DNA of 64,000 bases from an uncultured Acidobacteriota bacterium (GCA_963809485.1 CAWEJX010000008.1:256001-320000), one strand, 5' to 3'; numbered from the stretch's first letter, positions 28,561-47,631 are shown. The notes: generated from the sequence alone by a model not told the origin. Numbers and translations are program-made.

Positions 28561-28568
28561 ATCTTTCC

Positions 28569-28652
28569 CCAGTCTCCAGTCTCCAGTTTCCAGTTGCCAG
28601 TTTTGAGATTTGTTTTTAACTGAAAACTGGGAACTCTGAACTGGAAACTCGA
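28569..28652. repeat. heptamer inverted-repeat element B
   Basis: ccagtct ccagtct ccagttt ccagttg ccagttt / aactgaa aactggg aactctg aactgga aactcga (5+5 units). Confidence 0.9.
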
Positions 28653-28655
28653 TTC

Positions 28656-29534
28656 CTATTTGTCGAAATCATCCAGCACTTTGAAATAATCGTGTTTTTC
28701 GTGGGCGGCTTCCCGGACCCCTTTGTCCCTTCGCAGTTTGAAAAAGTTGAGTTCGCCTTCGTCGAGCACTTTATTGGTCTGAAAGCTGTGCATGATGTAG
28801 TGCTCCACCAGGCCCCGGTCGATTCCCATGGTGTGATAAATCAATTCCCGGGTAGCTTTGCCCAATGCAATACCGTCTTTGGGATGGAGGCAGAGCCCAT
28901 GAGCCAGGTTCCGGACTTCCTCATCGAGTTTGTCGGCCGGCACGGCTTTGTTGATCAGATTGTATTGCGCCGCCTTGATGCCGTTGAATCTGCGTCCGGT
29001 GAGGCAAAGCTCCATCGCTCGCGTCAGGCCGCACCGCAGGATCATCATGGGCGTAAGCGTCATGCCGCCCTGGCCCAGACGTTCCTCGACATGCCCCATC
29101 TGGCAGTCTTCGCTGGCGATGATCAGGTCGCAGAAACTCACGAGATTGAATGCGACGCCCAGACAATAGGTGTGCAGCTGCGCGATCGTGATCTTCTTGC
29201 AGTAAAGTATTCTCCTGTGGAAATCCACAAAAAGGTTCCTGTCGAATTCCAGCTTAACCCGCTGCGGAATGCGCTGCTTGCCCTTTTCGCCGGGTTTCGG
29301 CTCCCTCATGCCGTAAACAAATCCCACGCCGGTTAAATCGGCGCCGGCGCTGAAGGCGCGTCCTGCGCCTTTGAAAACGACGACTTTCACGTCATCATCC
29401 CGTTCCGCTTCGTTTAATGCCGCCGTCCAATCCCGGAAAATTTCGGGGCCGATGGCGTTGAGCCGGTCCGGCCGGTTCAGGGTGATAAATGCTACCTGTT
29501 TGTCTTTTTCGTATTTTATAAACTCCAGTTCCAT
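28656..29534 (-). CDS. enoyl-CoA hydratase/isomerase (crotonase) family protein
   Basis: ITLNRPDRLNA, GRAFSAGADL, CDLIIASED. Confidence 0.9.
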   Translation of the reverse strand: MELEFIKYEKDKQVAFITLNRPDRLNAIGPEIFRDWTAALNEAERDDDVKVVVFKGAGRAFSAGADLTGVGFVYGMREPKPGEKGKQRIPQRVKLEFDRNLFVDFHRRILYCKKITIAQLHTYCLGVAFNLVSFCDLIIASEDCQMGHVEERLGQGGMTLTPMMILRCGLTRAMELCLTGRRFNGIKAAQYNLINKAVPADKLDEEVRNLAHGLCLHPKDGIALGKATRELIYHTMGIDRGLVEHYIMHSFQTNKVLDEGELNFFKLRRDKGVREAAHEKHDYFKVLDDFDK

Positions 29535-29551
29535 GATGAGACCTCCGTTAT

Positions 29552-30769
29552 TTATTCAAGCACCCCTGAGGCAAGAAGCTCGACGAACTCCTCATCTGTC
29601 TTGCCCAGGATCTTCGTTAAGACATATTCGTTGTGCTCGCCCATGCAAGGGCTTGGCGTCGATGCCTGTGCCGGCGTCTTTGACAGAACCATGCTCGATC
29701 CCAGATGAGTGAACACGCCCATCTCACTGTGTTCCATGGGCCAGAAAAGTCCGCGCGCCCGCAACTGCGGATCTTCGAACAGGTCCGCCGAGTTTTCGAC
29801 GATGCCCGCAGGAACGCCTGCCGCCTGCAAAGCCGCCATTGCCTCCTCCGCTGTCCGGCCGGCCGTCCATGCATCAATCAAAGCATCCAGGGCCGCTTCA
29901 TTTTCTTTCCTGTGCTGCAGGGTGTCGAACTGGGGATCCTCAGCCAAATCCGGACGGCCCATGGTTTTGCATAGTGCAGACCACTGGCGGTCGTCGCTCA
30001 CAGCAATTGTGCACCACCGTTCCTTTCCCTTGCAGGGATACACATTGTGCGGTGCGCCATGCGGTACCGCGTTGCCCTTCCGGACCGGCTCCCTTCCGTT
30101 GACCGCCGCATCGAGGAGTCCGGGCAGCAGAAAGTAGAGCGCAGTTTCAAATTGCGCCAGATCGATGAGCTGGCCCTTTCCCGTTTTATCGCGATATTCC
30201 AGGGCCGCAATAAGGGCGGCCGAGGCGAAACGCGGACTGATACAGTCGGTGTAGGCGCCTACGCCAATCGGAAGCGGTCCCCTGTCCGGCCACCCGATGT
30301 AATTGGGAATGCCCGCAATGGCCGCCAGAATCATTCCGAAAGCTGCCAGATTTTTGTAGGGGCCTTCTGTCCCGAACCCGTTCTGCCGTACCATAATGAT
30401 GTCCGGCTTGATCTTCGTCAGGGCCTCGTACCCAAGCCCCCATTTGTCCATGACGCCCGGCGTGAAGTTTTCCATCACAACGTCGGCCCAGAAGATAAGG
30501 TCTTTGGCAACGCCGACCCCCTGAGGGCTGTTCATATTGAGCGAAAGGCTCATCATGTTAGCGCTGAAATGATTGAAGTAGCCGCTTCTGTTGAGACCGG
30601 GGACATTATCCTTGAAAGGCGCCGACGTCCTTGTGACACAAGGGCGATGACTGGTTTCCACCCGGACGACGGTTGCCCCGTAATCTGCAAAAAATTTCAG
30701 CGTCAGCGGCCCCACCATCGCCCAGTTAAACGCCGCTATCTTCAGATTGTCGAATACTTGATTGTTCAT
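29552..30769 (-). CDS. class III CoA-transferase (CaiB/BaiF; BbsF-like)
   Basis: WAMVGP, ADYGATVVRVE, ENFTPGVMDKWGLGY, AYTD, PHNVYPC. Confidence 0.9.
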   Translation of the reverse strand: MNNQVFDNLKIAAFNWAMVGPLTLKFFADYGATVVRVETSHRPCVTRTSAPFKDNVPGLNRSGYFNHFSANMMSLSLNMNSPQGVGVAKDLIFWADVVMENFTPGVMDKWGLGYEALTKIKPDIIMVRQNGFGTEGPYKNLAAFGMILAAIAGIPNYIGWPDRGPLPIGVGAYTDCISPRFASAALIAALEYRDKTGKGQLIDLAQFETALYFLLPGLLDAAVNGREPVRKGNAVPHGAPHNVYPCKGKERWCTIAVSDDRQWSALCKTMGRPDLAEDPQFDTLQHRKENEAALDALIDAWTAGRTAEEAMAALQAAGVPAGIVENSADLFEDPQLRARGLFWPMEHSEMGVFTHLGSSMVLSKTPAQASTPSPCMGEHNEYVLTKILGKTDEEFVELLASGVLE

Positions 30770-30780
30770 CCACTCCTCGC

Positions 30781-30860
30781 CGTTTCGCGTTTCCCGTTTC
30801 CGGTTTCCCGTTAAAGCCTTCCATTCCAAACGCGGAACCGGAAACGGGAAACGTGAAACG
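30781..30860. repeat. heptamer inverted-repeat element C (CGTTTCC class)
   Basis: cgtttcg cgtttcc cgtttcc ggtttcc cgtt / aacgcgg aaccgga aacggga aacgtga aacg. Confidence 0.9.
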
Positions 30861-30865
30861 TTTTT

Positions 30866-32962
30866 TTATATTTCACGGGCTGTGCGGAGGCCGGTGCCGA
30901 TTGCATCCGCAATCAGCAGGGGATCTTTGCAGTCGCCGATGGCATAGACTTCAGGCACTTTGCGCTTGAGGCTTTCGAGCAGATCGTTGTTTGGCGTCAG
31001 AGGCAAAGCCGTCACGATGCTGTCGGCCTCGATCGTCTGTCTCTTGCCGTCACCCGCAATAATGGTCAAGCCTCTATCGGTGACTTCCACGTACTCCTTG
31101 ACTCCGCTTATCAAAGTCACTCCCTTTTTCCTGAACCAGATTAGGAGATAGGCCTGAAGTGCATCCACCATGCCATCGCCGATCGTCGGCTTGGTCTCCA
31201 CGACGGTTACTTTTCGGCCCCGTTTGGTGAGAAATTCGGCAAGTTCGGCGCCCTGGATGGCTCCGCCGATTACGACAACCCTTTTCCCGACCGGCATGTA
31301 AAACCGGGTCAGGTCCCGTATGGTCTCGGGTTTAAAAAACTTCAAGTAAAACTTTAACTTTTGATGCAAAGCCACGCCGCTGACTACAATCGGCTTATCG
31401 ATGCCCGGGATTTTCGGGATTGTAGACGTAGCGCCGGTGGCCAGGAAAACCACGTCGGGTTTAAGCCTGTCGACCACGGAGAGATCCGCCTCCTGCCCGA
31501 GCTCGATTTTCACGCCAAGCTTGGCAAGCTGACGTGAAAAATAATTGATGATGAGCGACAGGTCTTCCGGATGGGTTCCCTTCACAATCGACGCTATGGG
31601 AAGCAATCCCCCGAGCGCGCTTGACTTTTCGTGAAGCGTTACATCGTGGCCCCTCAGAGCGGAGACCCTGGCTGCCGACATCCCTGCGGGCCCGCCGCCG
31701 ATCACGAGGACTTTTTTCCTTTTCTCCGCTTTTTCAATGGTGTTATAGGGGGTGCCCAACAAGCCGTTTATTCTGCATCTTCGGCTTCCGAGACAGTTGT
31801 CGCAGCCGGTGCACGGCTGGATGTCCTCCAGCCTTCCCTCCGCGATCTTTTTGGGATAATCCGGGTCGGCCAGAAGGCGCCGGGTCATCGCGATGAAATC
31901 AACCTTGCCCTCGCGGAGCAATCCTTCGCCGATGTCGGCATCGAGTTTGGCTACAACCGTAACAGGTATGGATACGGCGCTTTTGATCCCTGCGGCCGCG
32001 TAAATATTCGCGGCCACGCCTTGCTGGCTGGCATTATAGGCCTTTGGAAAAGCTTCGACCGGGATAGGAGGCTCCGGGTAGAAGAGGGCATCCGTGAGAT
32101 AGGCGCCCACGTGATAGCCCAGGAAGTGGCTTCGGACCTGCAGGGCGTCGGCGCCCGCAGCCTGGAGGCATTTGGCGATTTCCCTTGCGTCCTCATGAGT
32201 GAGGCACTGGCTGTCAGGAACGCCGATTCCCTGTCCCATCTCGATGCCGTTTATGATCATGGAAACGGGGAAGTCCCTCCCCAGGCGCTTTTTGATCTCC
32301 CGAATTACTTCCATCGCGAAGCGGGCCCGGTTTTCGATGCTGCCGCCATACGCATCGGTGCGCTTGTTCCAGAAGGGAGAGAAGAAGTTGTGCAGAAGGT
32401 GGCTGCTGGCTGCGTTGATGTCCACGCCGTCGAATCCCGCTTTCTGAGCCCGGACTGCTGCGCTGGCGAACTTGTCCACAATCTCCTGGATCTGCTCCAC
32501 AGTGAGCGCCCGGGGCACTTCGGCGTGAAAATCCCCATCGGACTGGAAGCTGACGGGCGACGCTCCTATGGGCGGCCCGTCGTACATCGGCTGCGGCGCG
32601 AAGGGGAGCTTGACCTGCCAGGGGCCGTCGTGATTCATCTGCATGAAAGTCGGGCAGTCATGTTTGTGAATGATTTTGACCAGTTCGCTGAGGCCCTGGA
32701 TGTATTTGTCATCGTCGATGCGGTACCTTTCTTTCCAGCGCACGCCCAGCGGGTAATCGATGGTGGGCGATTCAACAATCAACAGCCCCACACCGCCTCT
32801 GGCGATGCCTTCGTAAAATGCCAGGACTTCTTCCTGCATGTGCAGGTCGTCCTCGTGCCACATGAGCATGCCGGCGCCTGATTTGACGATTCGGTTTCTG
32901 GTTTTTACCGACCCTATGCGGCCGGGTTCGAGGAGCTTTTGGTATTTCGAAAAAGTACTCAT
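30866..32962 (-). CDS. NADH:flavin oxidoreductase (OYE barrel + 4Fe-4S + FAD; 2,4-dienoyl-CoA/enoate reductase-like)
   Basis: AGFDGVDINAASSHLL, NKRTDAYGGSIENRARF, CTGCDNC...C, VIGGGPAG. Confidence 0.9.
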   Translation of the reverse strand: MSTFSKYQKLLEPGRIGSVKTRNRIVKSGAGMLMWHEDDLHMQEEVLAFYEGIARGGVGLLIVESPTIDYPLGVRWKERYRIDDDKYIQGLSELVKIIHKHDCPTFMQMNHDGPWQVKLPFAPQPMYDGPPIGASPVSFQSDGDFHAEVPRALTVEQIQEIVDKFASAAVRAQKAGFDGVDINAASSHLLHNFFSPFWNKRTDAYGGSIENRARFAMEVIREIKKRLGRDFPVSMIINGIEMGQGIGVPDSQCLTHEDAREIAKCLQAAGADALQVRSHFLGYHVGAYLTDALFYPEPPIPVEAFPKAYNASQQGVAANIYAAAGIKSAVSIPVTVVAKLDADIGEGLLREGKVDFIAMTRRLLADPDYPKKIAEGRLEDIQPCTGCDNCLGSRRCRINGLLGTPYNTIEKAEKRKKVLVIGGGPAGMSAARVSALRGHDVTLHEKSSALGGLLPIASIVKGTHPEDLSLIINYFSRQLAKLGVKIELGQEADLSVVDRLKPDVVFLATGATSTIPKIPGIDKPIVVSGVALHQKLKFYLKFFKPETIRDLTRFYMPVGKRVVVIGGAIQGAELAEFLTKRGRKVTVVETKPTIGDGMVDALQAYLLIWFRKKGVTLISGVKEYVEVTDRGLTIIAGDGKRQTIEADSIVTALPLTPNNDLLESLKRKVPEVYAIGDCKDPLLIADAIGTGLRTAREI

Positions 32963-32981
32963 TCGTTTCACCTTTTTGAGA

Positions 32982-33056
32982 GGTTTCCCGTTTTCAGGTT
33001 CCCGGTTTCCCGTTCTGATTTCTTGAATTTGAACGGGAAAGAACGGGGAACCTGAA
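32982..33056. repeat. heptamer inverted-repeat element D
   Basis: Five GTT cores in 32982-33014. Right arm gaacgggaa...gggaacctgaa is complementary. Confidence 0.8.
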
Positions 33057-33058
33057 TT

Positions 33059-34303
33059 CTAGATAACTCCAGATTCTCTCATGAATGCGATTTGGTTCTC
33101 TGTCAATCCCAGTTCGCGGTAGACTTCGGCATTATGCTCGCCGACCATGGGCGCACGGCATTTGACGGACGTCTCATTTTCCGAAGATCGCGCGAACTGC
33201 TTTGGATACGGGATCGTCGATTGTAGTTCCGGATGCTCCATTTGCGTCCAGAAACCTCTGGCGGCGAGGTTGGGGTCGCCGAGCAGGTCCTTCATACCCA
33301 TAAGCGGGCAAATCGAGATGCCTCTCGTCGTCGCCGCTTCGAGCGCTTCAGTTTTTGTGCGTGTCATGAAAAACTCTGCGATAGGCTGCGATATCCTGTC
33401 TATCAATTCCTGCGTTGCGGTGGCCATGTCGAAACTTTCCCATTCGTAGGACAGAAGGAATTCGTTGGCCATGCCCTTTTCATTCATCCATTGCACCAGC
33501 TGGCGGCAGGTCTTGGCTCCCTGCTGCCCGCCGATCATGAAGAAAAATATGAAGCCGTCTTTGCACGGCCAAACCTGCCGCTGCAGGGTCCCCCGGCTGC
33601 TGGTGCGAAAGGTCCCCACCCGGCCGAGAATCAGTTTCTCGAGCTCCCAGTGCGGTATCGTTTGAGCCAGGAACCAGGCAGCGCTGTGCTGCATGGAAAC
33701 GTCCACATGCTGCCCATCCCCCGTCTTTCTCCTGAAATGATGTGCGAGCATGGAACCTACGGCAGCGTCCGCTCCGGCGTGAAGGCATGCCTGCGGCATG
33801 CTTATGTTCACTGGCCGTCGGTCCGAATCGCCGGTCAGAAAAAGCTCTCCGGCCATCCCCATGAGGACAAGGTCGGAAGCCTGATAGTGACGGTACGGCC
33901 CTGTCTGGCCAAAGGGCGTAATCGACGTCAGGATGATATCCTTCCGGATACGGCACAACTCGGGGTAGCCGAAGCCAAGCCTGTCCATCTCGCCCGGCGC
34001 AAAAGATTCAATGACAAAGTCCGCGGTTTTAGCCAGGTCGCGGAAAATGCGCCTGCCTTCCTCTGTCCCCAGATTGAGCGTGATTGCGCGCTTGCTGCTG
34101 TTATAGGCAAACCAGTAAAGGCTTTTTTCGGGATCCGTCTGATCGTGCCAGAAAGGACCGATTTTGCGTGAGGGATCTCCTCCGGGCCTCTCAACCTTTA
34201 TGACATCCACGCCCAGTTCGGCCAGGATCTTCCCGCACAGAAATCCTTTTTCGTCGGTCAGATCCAGGGCTCGATACCCTTCCAGCATTCTGGTCCGCGG
34301 CAT
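33059..34303 (-). CDS. class III CoA-transferase (CaiB/BaiF; BbsE-like)
   Basis: LDLTDEKGFLCGKILAELGVDVIKVERPGGD, SITPFGQTGPY. Confidence 0.9.
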   Translation of the reverse strand: MPRTRMLEGYRALDLTDEKGFLCGKILAELGVDVIKVERPGGDPSRKIGPFWHDQTDPEKSLYWFAYNSSKRAITLNLGTEEGRRIFRDLAKTADFVIESFAPGEMDRLGFGYPELCRIRKDIILTSITPFGQTGPYRHYQASDLVLMGMAGELFLTGDSDRRPVNISMPQACLHAGADAAVGSMLAHHFRRKTGDGQHVDVSMQHSAAWFLAQTIPHWELEKLILGRVGTFRTSSRGTLQRQVWPCKDGFIFFFMIGGQQGAKTCRQLVQWMNEKGMANEFLLSYEWESFDMATATQELIDRISQPIAEFFMTRTKTEALEAATTRGISICPLMGMKDLLGDPNLAARGFWTQMEHPELQSTIPYPKQFARSSENETSVKCRAPMVGEHNAEVYRELGLTENQIAFMRESGVI

Positions 34304-34307
34304 AATT

Positions 34308-34730
34308 TTATGCTTTCCCCCTGGCTTTCAGATCGGACCAGAGATCCGCAATGGCTGCCTTCACATCCGACGCGGGCGGGTATACACGGTCAAATCCCAG
34401 CTTCTTGAACTTTATCTCGTCGTCCTTGAAGTCGTGCTTCCCCACACCCAGGTTCCCGCCGATATAGAGAAGCACATCGTTCAGTCCGGCCTTGAGGCAG
34501 TTTTCCTTGAATCCCTGGACATCATTCTCGCCCATCCCATAAAGAGAACTCATCAGGATGGCATCCGCCTTGTTTTCCAGAGCGGCTTTGATGAACTCCT
34601 CCGGAGGCGTCAGGATTCCCAGCTCTATAACGTTGAACCCGCCTTCTCGGAGCGCCCGCGACAATATCTTTGTACCGATCACGTGGGCGTCCTTGCCCAC
34701 CGTCCCCGTCACTACAGTTGGATTAGCCAT
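34308..34730 (-). CDS. mamA: glutamate/methylaspartate mutase sigma (B12-binding) subunit
   Basis: DAHVIG (DxHxxG), SSLYG, YIGGNL, GFDRVYPP. Confidence 0.88.
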   Translation of the reverse strand: MANPTVVTGTVGKDAHVIGTKILSRALREGGFNVIELGILTPPEEFIKAALENKADAILMSSLYGMGENDVQGFKENCLKAGLNDVLLYIGGNLGVGKHDFKDDEIKFKKLGFDRVYPPASDVKAAIADLWSDLKARGKA

Positions 34731-34773
34731 AATTGCGTTTCTCCTTACACCGCGATTGACGATCTTTCAGAAG

Positions 34774-34843
34774 GAGTTTCCAGTTCCCAGGTAAAAGGCT
34801 TCAGTCTTAAAACTGGCAACTGGAAACTTGGAACTGGGAACTC
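34774..34843. repeat. heptamer inverted-repeat element E
   Basis: gagtttc cagttcc caggt / aactggc aactgga aacttgg aactggg aactc. Confidence 0.85.
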
Positions 34844-34845
34844 TT

Positions 34846-36309
34846 TTACGGTTTGCCGGTCAGCTGGCCTTTGCTGAAGGCCCAGAAATCCTGAACCAGG
34901 GCGTCATAATCCATCTGCCGGCCTTCCGCCTTTTCCCTTTCCGCTACTTTGGCGCGATGGAATTTCTTGACCTCTTCGGGGAATGGCAGATTGCCAAACT
35001 CCTTCCAACGTATGGCGCCGCGAACGTCCTTAATGCCCTGCACCAGGTCTTTCACTTGCCTGTTGGGGCTGAAACTTGAATCGAGGAATCCCTCTTCCAC
35101 CGATATCAGGCATCCAAGGACGACATCTCCGTCGCCCACTTCCAGGATTTTATTCATGAGCGCACGGATTTCGAGTTCGGCCATTGCCGCTTCTTCATCG
35201 ATTTCCTTCATTTTCAGGTCGATCTTCTGCCCGCGTATGACGTTCAGGAGCCAGTTGGTCGATTCGTAGCTTTGCGCGTGGGATTCTTCCGTGGGGATGC
35301 CCAGGGCTTCATCGATAGTTCTTATGGATACGGCCTCGACATTCCCGAGGGCGGCAACCATGGCTGTGTAATTGGGAAAAGCGAAGGCGGCTCCTACTCC
35401 CTGAGGCATGGGGAACAGCGGTGTATGCTGTGCGAAAACGCCTGCTATTTCCACGTCTTTGTAGCCAAATCTGTCCAGATACTCCCTCATCAGCCGGGGA
35501 GTCACCCGGATCCAGGCCAGGTCCTGCGCGAGATTGCCCATCAGATGAACGACGGAGGTTATGCTCTTGCCCCCCTGTTCGGCCACCATGAGCGCGTCTA
35601 CGATGGTGGTAGCCAGATTCACGGTCATCGGCTGCATGCCCGTAAGGATCCACCCATGATTGTCCGTGGAAATAATCACTCCCCGGTCGGCATAATAGCC
35701 GATCAGCCGCTGGACATACTGGCTTGCGGCCATGGATTGCTCCAGGGTTGCATACTTCTCGTAGGCTGCCCATGAGATAAAGGAAGATGCGGCGATTGCC
35801 GTCATGCCCGCAGCGAAAGCAATTTCGGTTGCCAGGGGATAGGATTTAAGGGAAAGCCTGGGATTAAAGGCTCCGCGATCGACGCTCTCGATGATTCTGC
35901 GCGTCTGCTTCACTCCGTAGTTGATGATCGGATATCCGTTCAGCAGGTTTTTGCCCGTCCTCCTCATCTCTGCCAGGAGGCTTTCCACTTTTTCGAAATC
36001 GAGCTGGCGCGTATAGCTGTCCGAGGTCACCGGGATGAAAGGCACTCCTGATTCAACCAGCTTTTTGGAGAGACTGATCTCGTCTTCAATCAATCCGGTG
36101 CCCGCCCTGGGAAATATGGCGGTTTTTCCCTCGTCGTGCAGCCTCCGGGCAACCTTATGCCAGTTCTTGGAGTCCGGCAGTTTCTTCTGATACTCGACCG
36201 CCTCAACAAGATCCACCTCACGGCCTGTCGGCCAGAGGGCAAGAACCGGTCCGCGCATTTTTAGAAAATCATTTTCATCAAGCCGCTTGTTTCTCAACTT
36301 GGTTTCCAT
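34846..36309 (-). CDS. glutamate mutase epsilon-like catalytic subunit with altered active site
   Basis: VLALWPTGREVDL, PRAG, DSYTR, LLNGYPIINYG, EALGIPT. Confidence 0.85.
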   Translation of the reverse strand: METKLRNKRLDENDFLKMRGPVLALWPTGREVDLVEAVEYQKKLPDSKNWHKVARRLHDEGKTAIFPRAGTGLIEDEISLSKKLVESGVPFIPVTSDSYTRQLDFEKVESLLAEMRRTGKNLLNGYPIINYGVKQTRRIIESVDRGAFNPRLSLKSYPLATEIAFAAGMTAIAASSFISWAAYEKYATLEQSMAASQYVQRLIGYYADRGVIISTDNHGWILTGMQPMTVNLATTIVDALMVAEQGGKSITSVVHLMGNLAQDLAWIRVTPRLMREYLDRFGYKDVEIAGVFAQHTPLFPMPQGVGAAFAFPNYTAMVAALGNVEAVSIRTIDEALGIPTEESHAQSYESTNWLLNVIRGQKIDLKMKEIDEEAAMAELEIRALMNKILEVGDGDVVLGCLISVEEGFLDSSFSPNRQVKDLVQGIKDVRGAIRWKEFGNLPFPEEVKKFHRAKVAEREKAEGRQMDYDALVQDFWAFSKGQLTGKP

Positions 36310-36317
36310 CTATTCCC

Positions 36318-36400
36318 CCAGTTCCCAGTTCCCAGTTCCCAGTTTCCGGTTTCCCTGTTTTGATTTCAACTCGAAACTCGAAACTGGGAACTTGGAACTA
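36318..36400. repeat. heptamer inverted-repeat element F
   Basis: ccagttc x3 ccagttt ccggttt / aactcga aactcga aactggg aacttgg aacta. Confidence 0.9.
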
Positions 36401-36401
36401 T

Positions 36402-37628: not shown

Positions 37629-37645
37629 ATCATCTCCCATCTCAA

Positions 37646-37762
37646 AATTACGAATTACGAATTACGAATGACGAATTTAAACAATCTACTTGGCTATCTA
37701 TCATAAAATGCAAACTGCAGATGTTGATTCAATTCGTCATTCGTAATTCGTAATTCGCAATT
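37646..37762. repeat. heptamer inverted-repeat element G (AATTACG class)
   Basis: aattacg x3 aatgacg aatt / aattcgtcattcgtaattcgtaattcgcaatt; 31/32 positions complementary. Confidence 0.92.
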
Positions 37763-39461
37763 ACGTTGTGAGCCAGCGGAGCATCTGAAGCTCCTCCGGA
37801 CTCGGTCTCGGCACTTCTTCGACGACGGGTGCAGTCTTCAGATCCCACCCGCAGTTATTTTTTATTTCTTTGATCCGTTCTTCCAGTTTTCGAGCCTGCG
37901 GATCCGGGAAGCATGCCACCAGATACAGCTCGTCCTCCGGGTCCGGTTTCCTGAAGATGCCCATAGTCGAAACCACCGTTGTTACGGCATGCCCGCGGCC
38001 GGTCACGTATGCAAGCTGGTCCACGAACCGATCCCTGGACTGATCCAGGCATAGGATGGCCTCGCGGGCGTTGAGCGCATCGTTGACTCCTCCCGAGCCG
38101 ACGAGGAATTTCCCCTTGGAGGTTTTTGTGGAATTGATGTTCCCGAACCGGTCCATCTGGCCTGCGCCGAGGATGCTCAGACAGCGGCTGTTCTCGCCCC
38201 CGACAAAAACACCCTGCATCATGACAGTATCCGTCAGGATTTTTGAACTGCGGACCCCGGCTTCGCTGGCCAGGATGGATTCCCCGGGAACGGGCGTATA
38301 GCCGATCTGACCGTTTCCGGTTCCCAATTCAAATCCCGCCGACTTCAGCTGATAATAGGCCAGAAATGCGGCCGTCGCGGCTGCGCCCGCTCCGGCGAGC
38401 ACCATTTTGTGCCCTTTGCTGTCCACGCTGTTGCGGATTTCCCGGGCCAACGCAATAAGCATCATCTCCTTGGGCTGGAATTCCGTGTCCTGTTGAGGCG
38501 ACGGGACAAACTCGAATCCCGTTGTCACCCGCCGGGACTTCTCTTTAAGCTCGTCGATTCGCTGCTTTCCAAGCTTGCTCAAATAGTGTTCGTGATCCAG
38601 ACAATCAAGGATCCATTCCCTGATCCAATCATCCAGTGCGGGGCCGCTTGCGGAAGCTTCATAGAGAGCATTGAGAAAATCTACATCCTTTTCGTAGGGA
38701 TCGATATCGCTGATGCCTGGATTGGCCAGGGAGAAAGGATGAAGTCCCAGAGGCGCAGGCGCCACAGCCTGAACGGCATAGGCAGGGATTTTGACCAGCG
38801 CCGCATATTTTTTTATGAATTCTGCAGGCACGATCTTCTCAACCGTTACGACCACTCCCCCTTTGCTGGCAAGGGAGCCCCAAACGTCTTCGCCGTAGGG
38901 AGCAGGCAGAATCGTGTTGCCATCGAGGTCCGCAGCACAGCCGTGGACAATGGAGATATCGGGCAGAAGAGCGCTCGCCAGGCCGACTTGGACTCCGGAT
39001 CCAAACGGATCGTCCATTGTCGTAAACGCTGTCGCGTTATCCTCGGCAATGCTGCTACCGAGAACGGATCGGGTGGGCATGAACGGAACGCCGAAAGCAC
39101 CCGCCATAAGCCGCTGCTGGAGAGAGTTCAGCGACCAGTTTTCCATCTCGATCTGGCCGCTTTCGTAAGCGTTCTGAATAACCTTACTCGGGCGTCCGGT
39201 GCCGGAAATATTGGCACACACCGAACAGATGAGCTTCTTCACCAGTCTGCAGTGAACCAGATTGAGCGCATGTCCCGTTACGGTGCTTTGGATCAGCGTG
39301 AATTCGGGATTTTTTCCATGATATTGCCGGATTATGTCGCAAATGGCGGCGCTGGCTCCCCCGATGCCCGAGGCGATATGCAGCTTCATCCCGGGCTTCA
39401 CGAAGCGTTTTACAGCTTCGCGCAACTCCAGCAGTTTCCCCTGTTCCTTAAGCGCAGTCAT
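37761..39461 (-). CDS. family I CoA-transferase, fused alpha+beta (glutaconate CoA-transferase-like)
   Basis: RLMAGAFGVPFMPTRSVLGS, AADLDGN, LGAGQMDRFGNINST, LVGSGGVND. Confidence 0.82.
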   Translation of the reverse strand: MTALKEQGKLLELREAVKRFVKPGMKLHIASGIGGASAAICDIIRQYHGKNPEFTLIQSTVTGHALNLVHCRLVKKLICSVCANISGTGRPSKVIQNAYESGQIEMENWSLNSLQQRLMAGAFGVPFMPTRSVLGSSIAEDNATAFTTMDDPFGSGVQVGLASALLPDISIVHGCAADLDGNTILPAPYGEDVWGSLASKGGVVVTVEKIVPAEFIKKYAALVKIPAYAVQAVAPAPLGLHPFSLANPGISDIDPYEKDVDFLNALYEASASGPALDDWIREWILDCLDHEHYLSKLGKQRIDELKEKSRRVTTGFEFVPSPQQDTEFQPKEMMLIALAREIRNSVDSKGHKMVLAGAGAAATAAFLAYYQLKSAGFELGTGNGQIGYTPVPGESILASEAGVRSSKILTDTVMMQGVFVGGENSRCLSILGAGQMDRFGNINSTKTSKGKFLVGSGGVNDALNAREAILCLDQSRDRFVDQLAYVTGRGHAVTTVVSTMGIFRKPDPEDELYLVACFPDPQARKLEERIKEIKNNCGWDLKTAPVVEEVPRPSPEELQMLRWLTT

Positions 39462-39527: not shown

Positions 39528-39689
39528 GAGTTCCCAGTTTCGAGTTCCCAGTTTCCAGTTGGATATAAATTGCTTTTGAATGGAGATTTTGAACCGGGAT
39601 TAAGCCTTACAGGATTTACTGCATGGGGGTGATGCCAGTTCCCAGTTTCCAATCCAAACTGGGAACTGGAAACTGGGAACTGGAAACTC
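39528..39689. repeat. heptamer inverted-repeat element H (with extra internal partial arm)
   Basis: Arms 39528-39560 and 39657-39689 (5 units each), plus ccagttcccagtttcc at 39635-39650. Confidence 0.88.
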
Positions 39690-39696
39690 AAAAGGT

Positions 39697-41178: not shown

Positions 41179-41195
41179 GACCGCCCCCATATCTT

Positions 41196-41724
41196 GAGTT
41201 TCCAGTTCCCAGTTTCAAGTTCCCAGTTACCTGCCGGTTCATTTTAGACTGGACACTGGTAATCTACGGTTTTTGTTTATATGTCAGAAGATATTTTATA
41301 AAACCCCGAATTGCTGCGCGGGTTTCGCCCGCATGATTGTAGACATCCTGAAAGTCGGCTTTCGAAATGTATTTCTGATCCAAGGCCACGTAAAGCTCGC
41401 TCTGTACCTCAGAGCATGAGCGTTTGGCATATCGAAGGAAGCGAAGGAATTCAGCATTAGTCTCCGAATCGAATCCTTCCGCAATATTATGCATAGCCGA
41501 ACCAGCAGCGCTTTGAATCTGTCTTCTTAAGGCCAAAATCCCGGGCAAACTTGTCCTTATTTGTTAGGCCATAGATTTTACTGGTTAGCTCTCGAGCCAG
41601 CTGCCATGCCTTGATTTCCTCAAAACGCTGAATTTTCATGTTAGATACAGTTACTGGTTCGAAGTAGCCGGCTTCCATCAGAGCTATACCAAACTGGAAA
41701 CTGGAAACTGGGAACTCGGAACTC
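41196..41724. repeat. heptamer inverted-repeat element I enclosing the four-helix-bundle gene
   Basis: Arms 41196-41228 (gagtttc cagttcc cagtttc aagttcc cagtt) and 41692-41724 (aactgga aactgga aactggg aactcgg aactc). Confidence 0.9.
41264..41639 (-). CDS. four helix bundle protein (23S rRNA IVP / Avd-like family), one-base frameshift near 41530
   Basis: MKIQRFEEIKAWQLAREL...FARDFGL + RRQIQSAAGSAMHNIAEGF...EFLRFLRYAKRSCSEVQSELYVALDQKYI. Span is 376 nt, one base too long. Confidence 0.9.
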
Positions 41725-41726
41725 GT

Positions 41727-42488
41727 TTAATCGGCGACGATGCCTCCATCCACGGGCAGCGCGGCGCCCGTAATGTAAGAGGCTTCATCCGAGCACAGGA
41801 ACATGGCTGCGGCGGCTACCTCTTCAGGTTCGCCTATCCTTCCCATGGGAACTTTCTGGTCCATTGCCTTGACCATTTCCGGATTCGCGGCTACCAGGCT
41901 TTCATTCATGCCCGTCCGGATGGGGCCCGGGCAGACACAGTTAACCCGAATGCCTTTTCGCGCAAACTCCAGCGCGGTCGATTTCGTGATTCCCACAACT
42001 CCGTGCTTGCTGGCCGGATAGGCCGGATTGCTCGGCGCTCCAACCAGTCCCGCGGCCGAAGACGTGTTCACAATGGCGCCTTTCCCTAGCTTGAGCATTT
42101 GCGGGATCTCATATTTCATGCACAGCCATACGCTCTTGAGATTCACATTGATCATCTCTTCCCAGTCCGCGGCTGTGAAATCGGCCATGGAAGCAAATAC
42201 CTTATGAATCCCGGCATTGTTGAAAGCGCAGTCAAGCTTCCCGTAAGTTTCGACCGTTTTCTCTACTAAAGCTTTAACATCTGCCTCCGAAGATACGTCC
42301 GTTTTTACAAAAAATGCGTCGCCACCGGCATCCTTGATCCGGCGTAGAGTTTCTTCTCCCCGCTTGACATCGACGTCGGCGATTGCCACCTTTGCTCCTC
42401 TTTGAGCAAAGCCTATTGCGGCCGCTCTGCCGATGCCATAAGCCCCCCCAGTCACGATCACAACCTTGTTTCGATACTCGTTTGGCAT
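41727..42488 (-). CDS. SDR family oxidoreductase
   Basis: TGGAYGIG, LDCAFNNAG, YPASKHG, LPVDGG. Start MPNEY after GGAG. Confidence 0.93.
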   Translation of the reverse strand: MPNEYRNKVVIVTGGAYGIGRAAAIGFAQRGAKVAIADVDVKRGEETLRRIKDAGGDAFFVKTDVSSEADVKALVEKTVETYGKLDCAFNNAGIHKVFASMADFTAADWEEMINVNLKSVWLCMKYEIPQMLKLGKGAIVNTSSAAGLVGAPSNPAYPASKHGVVGITKSTALEFARKGIRVNCVCPGPIRTGMNESLVAANPEMVKAMDQKVPMGRIGEPEEVAAAAMFLCSDEASYITGAALPVDGGIVAD

Positions 42489-42515
42489 TTCTCTATCTCC
42501 TCTTTTCGGGGTCTC

Positions 42516-42588
42516 TATTTCCGGTTCCCGCTCCTCGCCGGCAATCTTGGTTGTCCTCAATGGAAAAGCGGAAACGGGAAACCTGGAA
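42516..42588. repeat. degenerate heptamer inverted-repeat element J
   Basis: tatttccggttcccgctcc / ggaaaagcggaaacgggaaacctggaa. Confidence 0.55.
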
Positions 42589-42639
42589 TGTCTATTCTTA
42601 GGGATGTCTTCAGCATTAGTCAACAACCGAAGAGCCCGT

Positions 42640-44534: not shown

Positions 44535-45554
44535 TCATCGCTGCATGTTTTGCTGCACCCAGTCTTTGCAGAACTGCAATGCCTCCATCGCCGGCAAACC
44601 TCTGGCGGATTTCTCCTGTACCAAAGCTTCGTAGAGAGGCAATACGGCCCTCTCCCATCTTTTCTCTTCTTCGCTGCTTAGATAAATGGAGACGTGATCT
44701 TTTGCCGACCACTTTCTTATGGTGTTCTGATCCTTCTCGTCCCAGATCCGGCTTAGCTTTTCCGCGTATTCATCGGACATTTGGTTGATTATGTCCTGCA
44801 TTTCGACGGGAAGGCTGTTCCACTTGGCTTTGTTCATAAAAACGAGACCGGGGGCGCCCACAGAGGCATAGCGACTCACGGTGGTGTAATGCAGGATTTC
44901 GCCCCATTTAAGGGTCTCCAGCGAATCCCAGGCCGCCACCACGCCATCCACGATCCCTTTACGCAACGCATCGTAGGTATCGCTGGTCGGGATAACGATC
45001 GAGACAGCGCCCAGAGCTTCCAGGACCTTCGCTGCGTTGCCCCCCAGGCACCGAATCTTCATGCCCGATAAATCTTCAAGTTTCCTCACCGGTCTCTGGG
45101 TATGGAGCAGGCCGGGACTGGCGCTCAGGAAAAAAAGCACTTTCACCTGCTCCAGTTCCATGGGCTTGAAAGCACGAAAAAAGCCGTTGGACAACCGCGT
45201 CATCATAAAGGAGCTTCCGATGCCCAGAGGCTGTTCCATGACTTCAGTCAGCGGGAAACGGCCGGGGGTCAAGCCCATAGGCCCAAATCCGATGTCCGCG
45301 ATGCCCGTAGTCACGGAATCGTAGATTTGGGTTGCAGGAGTGAGAATTCCTCCAGGGTAATAGGTAGCCTGGATGCTCCCTCCGCTCCTTCGGCCCAGAT
45401 CCCTGCACCATTCTTCCAGCACCTGGCTGAGTTTGTCGTGGGCAGGCAGGATGCCGGAAAATTCGAGTTTGGTTATAGGTTTCTCCGGCCGGCAGGCTTG
45501 TCCGGCAAGCAGCGCAACGCAACAAAGCACCCGCAGGATATGTCTCATGCTCAT
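44535..45554 (-). CDS. dctP: TRAP transporter substrate-binding protein
   Basis: YPGGIL, GIADIG, TPGRFPL, LEDLSGMKIR (conserved Arg), YDALRKGIVDG. Confidence 0.9.
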   Translation of the reverse strand: MSMRHILRVLCCVALLAGQACRPEKPITKLEFSGILPAHDKLSQVLEEWCRDLGRRSGGSIQATYYPGGILTPATQIYDSVTTGIADIGFGPMGLTPGRFPLTEVMEQPLGIGSSFMMTRLSNGFFRAFKPMELEQVKVLFFLSASPGLLHTQRPVRKLEDLSGMKIRCLGGNAAKVLEALGAVSIVIPTSDTYDALRKGIVDGVVAAWDSLETLKWGEILHYTTVSRYASVGAPGLVFMNKAKWNSLPVEMQDIINQMSDEYAEKLSRIWDEKDQNTIRKWSAKDHVSIYLSSEEEKRWERAVLPLYEALVQEKSARGLPAMEALQFCKDWVQQNMQR

Positions 45555-45801
45555 AGCATCAATAAGTCAGCCATCATCATCGATTTTGTCAAAATAAGTC
45601 GGCGCCACACAATCCTGCAGCGGTCGAACTCCGTGATCCGCCCAAAAAATTCAGATTTTTCAGGCAATCCTCCATCGGCGAACTATCCTGCCCAAAAGCC
45701 GGAACGATCTTTCCTATATTAAGCCGAAGCCGTTTTTTTTTAGAGAAAATATCAAAGCGCTCCCATTTCTGCCCATTGGATGACATGCTAAAATCATCGG
45801 C

Positions 45802-47430
45802 ATGTCGACACAAGAAACTGTAAAGCCGGTAGAAATCAGTCCGCTTCGGCCGAAGTACGCCGAAAAAACGCCACCCTGTGTCTCTCACTGCCCGAATGAA
45901 GCCGATATCCGGGGCTGGATCACCACGATAGCACAGGCTGAAGCTTACGGGAGAACTGACGAGCAAGCCCTCGAGCTGGCATGGCGAAAAATCACCGATC
46001 TCAATCCCTTCCCCGCTATTTGCGGCCGTGTCTGCCCGCACCCATGCGAGGCGCAATGCAACCGCAAGGACAAGGATGGCCCTGTAGCCATCAACGCATT
46101 GGAGCGGTTTGTCGGCGATTACGGCATCGCCCGGGGATTAGGGCTTGAACGGCTTTCAGAAGACAAACGCCAGGACAAGGTTGCGGTCATAGGATCAGGT
46201 CCGGCAGGCCTTTCCTGCGCCTATCAGCTGGCTCGCCGCGGATATCCGGTCACGATTTATGAGGCCTTCAGCCAACCCGGCGGCATGCTGCGCTACGGCA
46301 TTCCCCAATACCGGTTACCCAGGGAGATATTGGACGCGGAAATTCACCGGATCCTGGATCTCGGGGTCGAGCTGAAGTGCGGCGTGATCGTTGGAAAGGA
46401 TATCTCCCTTGCGCAGCTGCGGCAGGAGTGCAAGGCAATTTTCGTCGGCATCGGCGCGCACAAGGGGCAGAGGCTCGGCATACCGGGTGAAGATGCCGGT
46501 AACGTTTTAACCGGCGTTGAATTTCTCAATCAGGTCAATAGCGGCCATCCCATGAACCTGGGCAGTTGCGTCCTTGTCGTCGGCGGCGGGGATACTGCCA
46601 TCGACGCAGCTAGAATCTGCAGGCGCCTGGGCGCCGAAGTCACAATACTCTATCGCCGGACCCGAGTCCGAGATGCCCGCAATCGCAAGGGAAATCGACG
46701 CCGCTATGGAAGAAGGAGTGGCCATTGAATTCCTGGCTGCGCCGACGGAAGTGCTTCGTGAAAATGGCACGGCGGTTGGATTGAAGTGCATCCGTATGGA
46801 GCTTGGAGCGCCCGATGCTTCCGGACGCTCCCGGCCGATGCCGATAGCCGGATCCGAGTTCGAAATAAAAGCCTCAACGATTATTGTCGCCGTCAGCCAG
46901 GAACCTGAATTGACCGCTCTTGCCGATTTGCAGGAAAACATGGAACGGATCCGGACCGATGAATGGGGAGCCACCGGCATCGCGGGTATTTATGCCGGCG
47001 GCGATGACCTCGAATTAGCCCTTGGTGGCCACAGCCGTATACCAGGGCCGATTGGCTGCCCAGGCGATCGATTCCCATTTCGCGGGGATAGATCCTGACA
47101 AAACCGGAGACACATCCTCCGGCTACCAAGGTGATCGCGGACTGGCATATGGAAGCGGAACGTCATGAACGGCAGCGTCTTCCGGTCGAGCAGCGCGATA
47201 TGGACGCTGAAATCGAGCAGGGCATGTCTCAGGAAGAAGCCCTCGAGGAAGCAAAACGCTGCATGTCGTGCGGCATGTGCATGGATTGCGAAAGCTGCTG
47301 GATGTACTGCACCAACAACTGCTTTGTCAGGCTTCCGAAGGGGGAGCACTACAGCATCAAGATGGATCTGTGCAACGGCTGCAAAAAATGCGCCGATGGC
47401 TGCCCCACCGGCTATCTCGAACTCGTTTAG
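45802..47430 (+). CDS. DsrL-like / GltD-family NAD(P)H iron-sulfur flavoprotein (frameshifted near 46670 and 47020-47100)
   Basis: KTPPCVSHCP..DIRGW, NPFPAICGRVCPHPCEAQCNR, GSGPAG, GGGDTAID, YRRT, EAKRCMSCGMCMDCESCWMYC...CNGCKKCADGCPTGY. Confidence 0.8.
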
Positions 47431-47630
47431 TTTCCAGTTCCCAGTTTCCAGTTCCCAGTTGGAAAAAGGATTGGAAATCATCAAAGGCATCGGAATTTGG
47501 CCATGCAGCGCATGAGAGACATATAGGCAGAGTCACCCCCAACAGCTATTCGAGCTCTTCCACTTTTGTGTTTTCCAGTCTTGGGTGGATGGTTTTGAAC
47601 TGGGAACTGGGAACTGGAAACTTGAAACTC
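47428..47630. repeat. heptamer inverted-repeat element K between convergent genes
   Basis: Arms 47428-47460 and 47598-47630 (5 units each), 137-nt loop. Confidence 0.9.
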
Positions 47631-47631
47631 A

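Follow-up and report, generated by a model that had tools for sequence, protein, structure and literature searches.

The STRR heptanucleotide repeats of heterocystous cyanobacteria are tandem heptamers that lie in non-coding DNA and fall into several unit families; we know of no function for them. The REP/BIME elements of enterobacteria and the RNase III sites of T7 early mRNA are intercistronic stem-loops that stabilise or separate segments of polycistronic RNA. REPs follow a single conserved consensus and are associated with a dedicated RAYT transposase, and to our knowledge arms with a period of seven occur in neither REPs nor the T7 sites.

Among the GGGNATC heptamers of Xanthomonas and Nostoc, inverted pairs with the capacity to form stem-loops number 70 and 75, and a comparison of two species shows 83% conservation of position and type (Rehm et al. 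2015, PMC4692102). The S23p IVS of Coxiella burnetii has a 28-bp stem that contains two to three tandem heptamers and is cleaved by RNase III in vitro (Warrier et al. 2016, PMC4990558); the number of heptamers varies between strains, and the ORF is decaying (PMC4990558). In the 5'-UTR of hmw in H. influenzae, an (ATCTTTC)n array forms one arm of a hairpin that is processed by RNase III, and the enzyme is also needed for changes in repeat number (PMC12721329). The TAACTGA repeats of the Beggiatoaceae are direct arrays that mostly end just upstream of start codons, with one inverted pair among 170 sets (MacGregor 2015, PMC4679880).

The window analysed here is a stretch of 64,000 nt from an uncultured Acidobacteriota bacterium (GCA_963809485.1 CAWEJX010000008.1:256001-320000). 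It holds ten elements with inverted heptamer arms, one of which encloses a gene:

28567..28652, minus strand: hairpin at the ECH/PrpD junction; arms (CCAGTYT)n and (AACTGRR)n on the plus strand, loop about 13-18 nt
30779..30863, minus strand: hairpin at the OYE/CoA-transferase III junction; arms (CCGTTTC)n and (GAAACGG)n, stem about 31 bp
32982..33056, minus strand: hairpin at the CoA-transferase III/OYE junction; arms of the GGTTYCC and GGRAACC type, about 22 bp
34772..34842, minus strand: lopsided hairpin at the MutE/MutS junction; mRNA 5' arm about 35 nt, 3' arm about 16 nt, about 15 bp paired
36313..36400, minus strand: hairpin at the CoA-transferase III/MutE junction; arms (CCCAGTT)n and (AACTSRR)n, 10-nt loop
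37641..37764, minus strand: hairpin at the CoA-transferase I/CoA-transferase III junction; arms (AATTACG)n and (CGTAATT)n, 49-nt loop, stem about 32 bp
39528..39693, minus strand: compound element at the Aldh/CoA-transferase I junction; outer arms 39528-39560 and 39655-39693
41196..41727, minus strand: IVS-type cassette at the SDR/Aldh junction; arms 41196-41228 and 41688-41727 enclose a four-helix-bundle (PF05635) gene
41264..41639, minus strand: S23p / 23S-rRNA-IVS-protein gene in operon direction, frameshifted; Pfam E 1.1e-20
42516..42590, minus strand: weak short-armed element at the DctM/SDR junction; about 2 units in each arm, stop codon about 50 nt away
47426..47631, strand not applicable: hairpin at a convergent junction; 130-nt loop

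A preliminary description had placed inverted period-7 arms at 28569, 30781, 32982, 34774, 36318, 37646, 39528, 41196, 42516 and 47428, and Tandem Repeats Finder together with the sequence at each site bears out all ten. Eight of them stand out clearly; of the remaining two, 34774 is lopsided and 42516 weak. The program reports period-7 arrays at 28569, 30780/30828, 32982, 34811, 36317/36368, 37646/37731, 39529/39656, 41197/41691 and 47429/47597 and does not flag 42516..42590; the reverse-complement partner arm can be read in the sequence at each of the ten sites. The lopsided element pairs over so short a length because its mRNA 3' arm consists of two units, and the compound element has an extra inner arm (39640-39654) that is able to pair with the right arm. 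Loop lengths from our own detection (18, 19, 18, 10, 49, 98, 471 and 130 nt) are close to the 14-463 nt given earlier.

The elements had been assigned to ten junctions of one polycistronic region. This is correct for nine, which lie between same-strand genes, while the one at 47428 is outside the polycistron. It separates two convergent genes, both frameshifted: its left arm overlaps the TAG (47428-47430) with which a Fer4/GltD-like gene on the plus strand ends, and its right arm terminates 1 nt before the stop (47632-47634) of an AFOR gene on the minus strand. The reported closeness of one arm to the upstream stop codon was recovered, with distances of 0-8 nt at nine of the ten sites and 42516 as the exception, and so was the abutment of the other arm on the next ribosome-binding site (RBS), the stems spanning from just past the stop codon to the next RBS. 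At 37641..37764 the upstream TAA stop (37761-37763) is within the arm. The element at 36313..36400 begins 2-4 nt past the stop and has an SD-like GGGGGA at the stem base, at 30779..30863 the SD GAGGAG follows the 3' arm directly, and at 28567..28652 the mRNA 3' arm stops 6 nt ahead of the PrpD ATG (28558-28560). Tightly coupled junctions (17 nt, 4 nt and the overlapping DctQ/DctM pair) lack elements, as had been stated, and do so in 8 genomes; the DctP/DctQ (51 nt) and PrpD/SDR (32 nt) junctions are also without one.

The sites were folded as mRNA (minus strand), with z scores calculated against 200 dinucleotide shuffles per site. The strongest folds are those of 37635-37766 (-54 kcal/mol, z -9.1), 36304-36407 (z -6.8) and 30764-30871 (-48 kcal/mol, z -5.6), followed by 28555-28661 and 32957-33064 (z -4.2 each), 34725-34851 (z -2.6) and 42483-42600 (z -2.2, with 10 of the 200 shuffles equally good). 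The stems of ~33 bp proposed earlier are thus predicted in the operon mRNA, with a length that ranges from about 15 to 33 bp. No sense-strand bias was seen in the arm mismatches (34 vs 32 for stability, 172 vs 164 for G-U pairs), in contrast to the tRNAs of the same genome, where it is present (33 vs 14, and 107 vs 55 for G-U pairs). The missing G-U bias argues against selection at the RNA level on individual pairs, but it would be equally expected if stems of 30 bp tolerate single mismatches. No Rfam family was matched at its gathering score; the hits obtained resemble miRNA hairpins and, at 27-41 bits, stay below the cut-offs of 61-102.

About 137 paired elements, built from many different units, make up the genome-wide class to which these ten belong. 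The scan for period-7 arrays that the preliminary description had called for gave, at a threshold of at least 17/21 matches, 272 arrays at period 7 as compared to 2, 13, 82 and 22 at periods 5, 6, 8 and 9, and 2 in a block-shuffled genome. At a threshold of at least 16/21, a reverse-complement partner is found within 1200 nt for 179 of 238 merged arrays, against 30 of 238 in a complement-only control. Chance is excluded genome-wide for the period-7 arrays and for their pairing. The arms are mostly non-coding and often near stop codons: 13.6% of them are coding, compared to 75% of the genome, and in the co-directional cases an arm is located at -24 to +12 nt of the stop 51 times out of 84. The element density per kb of intergenic DNA is 0.077 in co-directional, 0.077 in convergent and 0.030 in divergent spacers; the same class is present at convergent and divergent junctions as well. 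Elements occur within the S10/spc ribosomal-protein operons as well, and elsewhere whole hairpin modules are amplified in tandem. The operon is the densest cluster in the genome (7 elements in 20 kb by strict detection, the next best having 5), and only 40 of 711 comparable spacers genome-wide have an element.

According to Tandem Repeats Finder, 170 arrays have 2.x copies of the unit, 152 have 3.x, 176 have 4.x, 31 have 5.x and 24 have 6 or more; the number thus falls steeply beyond 4.x, from 176 to 31 arrays. The unit families number in the dozens and share no single consensus. Most frequent are AATTACG (33), AATGACG (12) and AATATCG (9), and G3 tracts are found only in some families, for example AGGGATT and GGGAACT. 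The polarity of the arms is fixed within families (AATTACG 19:1, AATATCG 14:0, AATGACG 9:0), and the left arm has more G than C in 84 of 103 cases. The AATATCG family, which is not represented among the ten, has a conserved non-heptamer core (CCGCAGAA ... TTCTGCGG) in about a dozen copies; its copy in the window (13220-13302) lies within a dispersed repeat of ~300 nt that has many copies in the closest relative, G078.

In 11 related genomes, too, these junctions contain hairpins, with changes of the unit. Across 8 genomes, 43 of 54 orthologous spacers fold with z < -3, as compared to 16 of 119 random co-directional spacers of this genome. At the CoA-transferase III/MutE junction the hairpin is found in 12 of 12 distinct genomes, a retention more in keeping with selection for a function than with elements that are purely passengers. 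Across genomes, units from one junction resemble each other more than unrelated pairs do (mean distance 1.64 vs 2.42, permutation p 0.0005). Relative to G078, whose genes are 86-94% identical, the arms differ by indels of 14, 14, 7, 7, 7 and 8 nt; the left arm of 28567..28652 is 14 nt longer here, 37641..37764 has indels of 14 and 7 nt, and the right arm of 39528..39693 has one of 7 nt. In two elements all units in both arms have been switched from the CCAGTT to the CCCGTT type within near-identical flanks, and alongside this switch the short loop of the hairpin has changed less than its arms. Compensatory pairs are found at 4 of 18 stem positions, and are seen at 36313..36400. Neither empty sites nor target-site duplications were found in the pairs compared with G078. 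A copy at the L3/L4 ribosomal-protein junction is strong in only 8 of 30 family genomes and is lost or decayed in many relatives; in the closest one it has decayed via uncompensated substitutions (z -1.6). The evolution of the elements looks more like concerted turnover at the DNA level than like that of a dedicated regulator.

The cassette at 41196..41727 is found at the same junction in four genomes (L004, L007, G064 and G078). Its gene is broken here: the ORF at 41264-41548 covers profile positions 30-104, the N-terminal part starts from an ATG at 41637-41639 in another frame, and tblastn returns the gene in two pieces. There is a 1-nt difference relative to the G078 copy, which is an intact ORF, and by eye the two copies share about 80% identity. 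This genome has two PF05635 genes, and both lie within inverted heptamer arms, as does a third, sub-threshold remnant (E 4e-4). When the 250-nt flanks of each PF05635 locus are searched for an inverted match, 25 of the 29 evaluable loci of the class have inverted short-period flanks of at least 16/21, and 21 of the 29 reach 18; the control of small genes gave 16 matches in 300, with a maximum of 17. These arms are mostly of period 7, some of period 8. Nine of the ten elements contain no gene, and tblastn (E up to 0.01) detects no trace of PF05635 in 56 of the 58 loops that measure 60-700 nt. Descent of the gene-less hairpins from cassettes is therefore not demonstrated, and the gene could equally have entered hairpins that were already present.

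In terms of known repeats, the elements are of the STRR-like heptamer type, with arms of typically 3-5 copies that are reverse complements of each other. They share with STRRs the tandem heptamers in non-coding DNA, and the STRR unit CCCCAGT resembles CCCAGTT here, but STRRs are mainly described as direct arrays, whereas the arms here are paired and placed at operon junctions, a design and placement that STRRs are not known to have. With REP/BIME and the T7 sites they have in common that they are intercistronic stem-loops in polycistronic RNA; their dozens of unit families, with no single consensus, set them apart from REP/BIME. The likeness to the GGGNATC repeats is extensive, comprising tandem 7-nt units of mostly about 4 copies, an intergenic location between aligned ORFs with few cases between divergent ones, and arrays within 50 bp of a stop codon or overlapping it (PMC4692102). 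The excess of period 7, the non-coding position near stops, the rarity at divergent junctions and the preference for about four units are thus all reproduced. However, the GGGNATC repeats have one G-rich unit that is read as a quadruplex former (PMC4692102), while here there are dozens of units, the commonest being AT-rich and without G4 potential, and the unit changes between species at one junction. The passages of PMC4692102 that were consulted contain no link to S23p genes. The Coxiella IVS has, like one of the ten elements here, a long terminal inverted-repeat stem around an ORF of the PF05635 family, but it resides in helix 45 of the 23S rRNA (PMC4990558) and the present elements in mRNA spacers. 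All ten lie between protein genes, and the 23S gene of this genome (C20:198423-201436) has no heptamer array inside. The hmw hairpin combines one repeat arm with a G-rich region at a single phase-variation locus in a 5'-UTR (PMC12721329), unlike the genome-wide intercistronic class found here. The TAACTGA repeats are also intergenic heptamer arrays of 2-6 copies (PMC4679880); the arms here are inverted pairs of other units.

The reading that we favour, with a probability of roughly 0.55, is that the elements are self-maintaining and largely passenger fold-out hairpins of the IVS type, with mRNA processing as a probable side effect, rather than dedicated regulators. In this reading they are old residents of the intercistronic spacers of the operon and change where they stand: whole 7-nt units are gained or lost, and the unit is altered in concert in both arms, with pairing maintained as the sequence turns over. 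On transcription, each element would fold out of the mRNA as a stem of 15-33 bp, whose base would put the upstream stop codon beside the next ribosome-binding site, and this geometry would render the elements tolerable. By analogy with IVS, stems of such length would be substrates of RNase III, and the polycistronic RNA would therefore likely be cut at the junctions. Such processing is plausible, and an RNase III gene is encoded in the genome. The fixed polarity of the arms within families is a feature that the passenger hairpins do not explain. The preliminary interpretation, processing sites or protein-binding modules that segment or tune a polycistronic transcript, retains its stems, their stop-to-RBS placement, their absence at tight junctions and their persistence at orthologous junctions; modules recognised by a sequence-specific protein are unlikely, as the unit varies both among elements and among species.

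It is possible, but in our judgement clearly less probable, that the stems are adaptive intercistronic RNA elements, selected for their effect on how stable, or how well translated, operon segments are relative to each other. Candidate roles are RNase III sites as in T7 early mRNA, REP-like 3' stabilisers, or coupling devices in which the terminating ribosome opens the stem base and frees the next RBS. This would account for the retention of hairpins at given junctions, in up to 12 genomes, despite the turnover of sequence, for the stem base 0-8 nt from the stop at nine of the ten sites, for the clustering in this operon and for the occurrence inside the S10/spc operons. At four junctions, moreover, the 3' arm ends 6-10 nt ahead of the ATG, and SD-like purines are therefore in or at the stem base. 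What speaks against selected RNA elements is that the arms lack the sense-strand bias in stability and G-U pairs that tRNAs display, that the density at convergent junctions is equal and divergent junctions also have elements, that the L3/L4 copy is strong in a minority of the family genomes with uncompensated decay in the closest relative, and that whole modules amplify in tandem elsewhere.

The other explanations are improbable. Non-autonomous mobile elements of the MITE or REP type, which a transposase with its gene elsewhere copies to new sites, would agree with the fixed polarity and with the AATATCG family, given its conserved core and the dispersed repeat around 13220-13302. The short loops of the operon elements, however, share no similarity, and those in the window match no other loop; common descent links the units at orthologous junctions, and synteny of the elements extends over 12 genomes; the comparison with G078 gave no target-site duplication or empty site; and the variety of units speaks against one sequence-specific transposase. 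Slightly less probable still is a function as DNA-level or protein-binding arrays, such as G-quadruplex or i-motif structures, sites in 7-bp register for nucleoid proteins or regulators, or signals for recombination or replication. The strand-symmetric mismatches are in line with this, as are the four G3 tracts in GGGAACT and AGGGATT arms and the strand-independent polarity, with the G-rich arm 5' in 84 of 103 cases, which is the 'convergent' arrangement described for Xanthomonas GGGAATC pairs (PMC4692102). Against it, the commonest families (AATTACG, AATGACG and AATATCG) cannot form quadruplexes, the change of unit between species at one junction is hard to square with a specific binder, and the elements show a 2.5-fold depletion in divergent (promoter) spacers. 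Intrinsic terminators or attenuators are the least credible option. There are long stems at gene ends, and 21 hairpins are at convergent junctions, but a T-run of at least 4 within 9 nt past the stem is rare (5/67 in sense, 8/67 in antisense and 1/50 in convergent directions), the stems are long and often AT-rich, and nine of the ten elements are inside one operon.

Returning to the passenger hairpins, one can speculate, tentatively and with more doubt than confidence, that the inverted-heptamer hairpins and the S23p 'IVS' cassettes make up one widespread selfish class. Any transcribed spacer could be colonised by it, be it an mRNA junction or a helix of 23S rRNA, and survival would come from fold-out and trimming by RNase III. 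The arms would be kept complementary by stem-templated concerted evolution, that is, slippage of units and copying between arms, rather than by ordinary selection, and this process may be tied to transcription and RNase III, as in H. influenzae. The hairpins of the operon share their build with the shell around a small gene that was first found inside ribosomal RNA. If the proposal is true, STRRs, the Xanthomonas GGGAATC repeats and the intervening sequences of rRNA would have a common origin and mechanism.

The inverted heptamer elements considered here lie in and beside one operon of the source genome (G000; 6.04 Mb in 21 contigs, 55.6% G+C; the window is G000:C8:256001-320000). In transcription order, the operon reads as follows.

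26.3-45.6 kb, minus strand: operon genes, in three parts
First part: TRAP DctP, DctQ and DctM, SDR, aldehyde dehydrogenase, family-I CoA transferase
Middle: family-III CoA transferase, glutamate-mutase-like MutE and MutS, family-III CoA transferase
Last part: OYE/FAD oxidoreductase, family-III CoA transferase, enoyl-CoA hydratase, MmgE/PrpD, SDR

At the sites where the preliminary description had claimed inverted period-7 elements, TRF arrays are found, with the reverse-complement arm present in the sequence every time; the observation is genuine and far above chance. The unit varies among the ten elements: CCAGTTY occurs at seven sites, a CCGTTTC-like unit in elements 30781, 32982 and 42516 (named by start position), and AATTACG in element 37646. 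Whole-element folding as mRNA covered the seven short elements, the long-loop ones (39528, 41196 and 47428) being outside it. Strong folds result for five of the seven (z −4.2 to −9.1); those of the remaining two are lopsided (34774, z −2.6) and weak (42516, z −2.2).

The elements had also been placed at the gene junctions of one region, with an arm close to the upstream stop codon. Nine lie between same-strand genes, while 47428 is located between convergent genes; at the same-strand sites an arm begins 0-8 nt after the stop, with the exception of 42516. At 47428, the stops of both flanking genes touch the arms. Each of these genes is spread over several reading frames, three for 45784-47430 (+), a GltD-like/Fer4 oxidoreductase, and four or more for 47632-49586 (−), an aldehyde:ferredoxin oxidoreductase, and they are either pseudogenes or products of assembly indels. 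An intact paralogue of the latter (49599-51461) adjoins them.

A genome-wide scan for period-7 arrays, which the preliminary description had proposed, returns 272 arrays versus 2 in the shuffled genome; at the same threshold, periods 5, 6, 8 and 9 give 2, 13, 82 and 22. After merging, 179 of 238 arrays have a reverse-complement partner inside 1.2 kb, compared to 30 in the complement-only control. The census comprises 137 paired elements (103 with a loop of at most 160 nt) and 59 single arrays, in dozens of unit families, and the number of units per array drops sharply past 4.x. The arms keep away from coding sequence, with 13.6% of arm sequence coding versus 75% for the genome, percentages that depend on crude home-made gene calls; for the same reason, the genome-wide stem-to-start-codon distances are noisy and of qualitative use only. 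The intergenic density is 0.077 per kb between both co-directional and convergent genes, and 2.5-fold lower (0.030) between divergent ones. Of the co-directional spacers measuring 60-260 nt, 711 in all, just 40 contain a hairpin, and the operon at 26.3-45.6 kb is the densest hairpin cluster of the genome.

A reading as intrinsic terminators is rejected, because U-tracts are largely absent 3' of the stems. An Rfam scan of the elements gave no family at gathering score. Sub-threshold matches to eukaryotic miRNA precursor families, at 28571-28656, 30781-30860 and 36311-36409, are an annotation trap. Homology between loops was also considered: matches are limited to a few long "loops", which consist of entire genes or of a dispersed repeat between two separate arrays, and for these few the arm pairing is artefactual.

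Several further features of the class can be mentioned. Arm polarity is fixed inside families, irrespective of strand: the AATTACG-type arm stands on the left in 19 of the 20 elements of its family, the AATATCG arm in all 14 and the AATGACG arm in all 9, and the left-hand arm has more G than C in 84 of 103 elements. The CCAGTT family of the operon has the reversed polarity. Period-8 arrays are likewise in excess (the 82 already counted), a few period-10 arrays were detected by TRF in the window (11849, 11952 and 23814), and period-8 inverted arms occur in some relatives, also around S23p genes; one L002 spacer resembles a hairpin of roughly period 10. The loci concerned in the relatives are L002, L028, L035 and L038. 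An eleventh hairpin of the window, 13220-13302 (inside 13116-13422), belongs to the AATATCG family, whose copies have a conserved core CCGCAGAA...TTCTGCGG in common, and lies within a dispersed repeat of ~300 nt with many copies in the closest relative, G078. Tandem amplification of complete hairpin modules is seen at G000:C19:41143-41917 (L066; ~7 copies of an 88-102-nt unit made of an AGTTYCC hairpin and a 27-nt spacer) and at G000:C7:561336-562068 (L067; 5.2 copies of a 141-nt unit with an AATTACG array).

We now turn to the element 41196-41727, whose 471-nt "loop" codes for a protein of the S23p family (PF05635, 23S rRNA intervening sequence (IVS) protein; E 1e-20). The gene runs in operon direction and is broken by a frameshift, the G078 copy being intact. 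G000 has just one further PF05635 gene (C1:517216-517530; C1:517195-517560 as the intact copy), which is likewise located between inverted heptamer arrays, of AGGGATT and GGTTAGY units, and so is a sub-threshold remnant at C20:906296-906586. In the taxonomic class of G000, 44 of 61 genomes have PF05635. Thirty such loci were fetched, of which 29 could be scored: at 25 of them the two 250-nt flanks match in inverted orientation at 16/21 or better, and at 21 the match reaches 18/21. Among the four loci below the cut, L020 belongs to a genome marked as unpublished, and leaving it out gives 25 of 28. The arms are mostly of period 7 and sometimes 8, with an own unit at each locus. Since only 16 of 300 small control genes of G000 reach 16, and none goes above 17, the inverted short-period shell accompanies the S23p gene.

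Are the gene-less hairpins decayed versions of this cassette? A tblastn search with 26 S23p proteins against 58 loops matches the 2 known loci alone; the other 56 are without trace, so that the idea of decayed S23p genes is unsupported, and a whole-genome search of G000 gave no further S23p sites. Two directions are candidates, namely that the hairpins are emptied cassettes or that the S23p gene enters hairpins. Within the 23S rRNA gene of G000 there is no heptamer array. In G078, a contig (C160, L059) ends at about window position 41750, 23 nt past the outer end of the right arm of the cassette (41727), which suggests that heptamer repeats break short-read assemblies.

Among the systems available for comparison, STRR are a further heptamer repeat type. 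The nearest published description found is that of the Xanthomonas GGGAATC arrays by Rehm et al. 2015 (PMC4692102), which have about four units, lie near stops, are rare between divergent genes, form 70-75 inverted pairs and are conserved in position between species; all of these features are common to the present elements. However, the units of the present elements are numerous and for the most part cannot form quadruplexes, and the quadruplex reading does therefore not transfer to them. The Beggiatoaceae TAACTGA repeats (PMC4679880) are direct and upstream of starts, whereas the present arms are inverted. Two cases of RNase III cutting are on record: the homologous Coxiella IVS, with a 28-bp stem containing 2-3 tandem heptamers that is cut in vitro (PMC4990558), and the H. 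influenzae hmw 5' UTR, where a heptamer array is one arm of a cut hairpin (PMC12721329). A literature search, with subscription journals mostly and supplements wholly outside its scope, found no link between S23p genes and intergenic inverted heptamer arrays.

Synteny of the operon extends to seven relatives at species level, whose MutE is 85-87% identical, and to four more genomes of the genus; six loci of the extended set duplicate loci already included and enter the counts a single time. That tight junctions lack elements, as previously noted, extends to the relatives, with none at junctions of 0-5 and 14-18 nt. The remaining junctions have hairpins in nearly all genomes, with z below −3 in 43 of 54 spacers, a value found in 16 of 119 co-directional spacers picked at random from G000, and the junction between a family-III CoA transferase and MutE (CoAT3c/MutE) has a heptamer hairpin in 12 of 12 distinct genomes. 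The units themselves change: between enoyl-CoA hydratase and PrpD they are AGTTYCC, ATTCCAG, ATTCGAG or GGTTTCC depending on the species, or there is an 8-mer or a plain hairpin. Nevertheless, across genomes the units of a given junction resemble each other more than unrelated pairs do (mean distance 1.64 vs 2.42, p 0.0005), and the elements thus descend in place. The unit distances do not support homogenisation between adjacent junctions within a genome (2.15 vs 2.42, p 0.15).

Within elements, the arms of the window and of G078, whose genes are 86-94% identical, differ by indels of 14, 14, 7, 7, 7 and 8 nt. At CoAT3c/MutE and at the S23p cassette, all units of both arms have gone over from the CCAGTT type to the CCCGTT type with near-identical flanks, which demands homogenisation within and between arms, in other words concerted evolution, and not independent point mutations. 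Compensatory changes are seen at 4 of 18 pairs in eight aligned CoAT3c/MutE spacers, where the register of the repeat alignment is uncertain. Elsewhere in the window, dispersed repeats of ~300 and ~400 nt (18920-19221 and 23517-23919) have many G078 copies with 82-97% identity, 13120-19221 (~6.1 kb) corresponds to 674 nt in G078, and G078 has ~10.8 kb extra near 26057-26312.

The strands of 67 co-directional hairpins were also compared. Folding favours the sense strand in 34 and the antisense strand in 32, with 172 G-U pairs versus 164 in antisense, while 48 tRNAs of G000 give 33 versus 14 (p 0.001) and 107 versus 55. This parity, unlike the tRNA result, gives no sign of RNA-strand-specific mismatch filtering in the arms. 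It fits a symmetric process at the DNA level, would equally be expected if 30-bp stems tolerate single mismatches, and weakens the case for a dedicated RNA function. A look-up of RNA data for window 33000-42000 had no result, and three metatranscriptome-labelled runs gave 21 short contig pieces (18 from run X2, 3 from X3) with 90-99% likeness; they likely derive from other organisms, because half of 11 pieces, among the matches listed, are on the heptamer arrays themselves.

The S10/spc ribosomal-protein cluster (G000:C1:19500-33500, L068) contains hairpins too, at L3/L4, at secY/adk and after adk. The arrangement of adk between two inverted arrays is reminiscent of rRNA-flanking processing stems. 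The L3/L4 spacer of G000 is filled by a 101-nt hairpin, and a strong heptamer hairpin at this site is limited to 8 of 30 genomes of the family. The G078 copy has decayed through uncompensated substitutions (z −1.6), and in several relatives spacers of 35-55 nt retain no more than remnants of the arms. Birth, persistence and decay of hairpins all occur.

The firm parts on which a mechanism can be built are the architecture, the genome-wide class, the S23p shell, the in-place descent, the 7-nt slippage and the concerted change of two arms. In the polycistronic RNA, each element would fold out as a long stem, and insertion may cost little because the stem base would bring the stop codon and the following RBS together. 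By analogy with the Coxiella IVS and the hmw 5' UTR, the stems of 22-33 bp would be substrates of RNase III, whose gene is present in G000 at C7:485629-486015, and cutting would segment the operon RNA. Of the earlier proposal that the stems segment or tune a polycistronic mRNA, the structural half is supported and the regulatory half hypothetical. To the mechanism as a whole we give a probability of roughly 55%; segmentation would be a likely outcome of RNase III-cut fold-out stems, not an established purpose.

In the chief alternative, selection keeps the stems for RNA segmentation or translational coupling. The near-perfect retention of hairpins in this operon speaks for it, but the lack of strand bias in the arms and the L3/L4 losses among relatives speak against it, and we consider it unlikely.

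The elements belong to a known, unexplained heptamer repeat type. Heptamer repeats (STRR, GGGAATC and TAACTGA) and rRNA intervening sequences are each without agreed function or origin. The IVS shell together with the concerted arm evolution is a useful lead that turns this old question into a testable one. The locus is tractable, with an operon saturated with hairpins, one cassette that retains the S23p gene, and a dozen related genomes in which the unit changes in both arms while pairing survives. If the hairpins are mere passengers, they still matter in annotation, where they give rise to spurious miRNA-like matches, wrongly called ORF starts and broken contigs. If the shared shell means a common origin, RNase III assays and end-mapping of these stems would bear on both puzzles, and the same stems could tell whether bacteria routinely harbour self-maintaining hairpins in essential operons, ribosomal-protein ones included.
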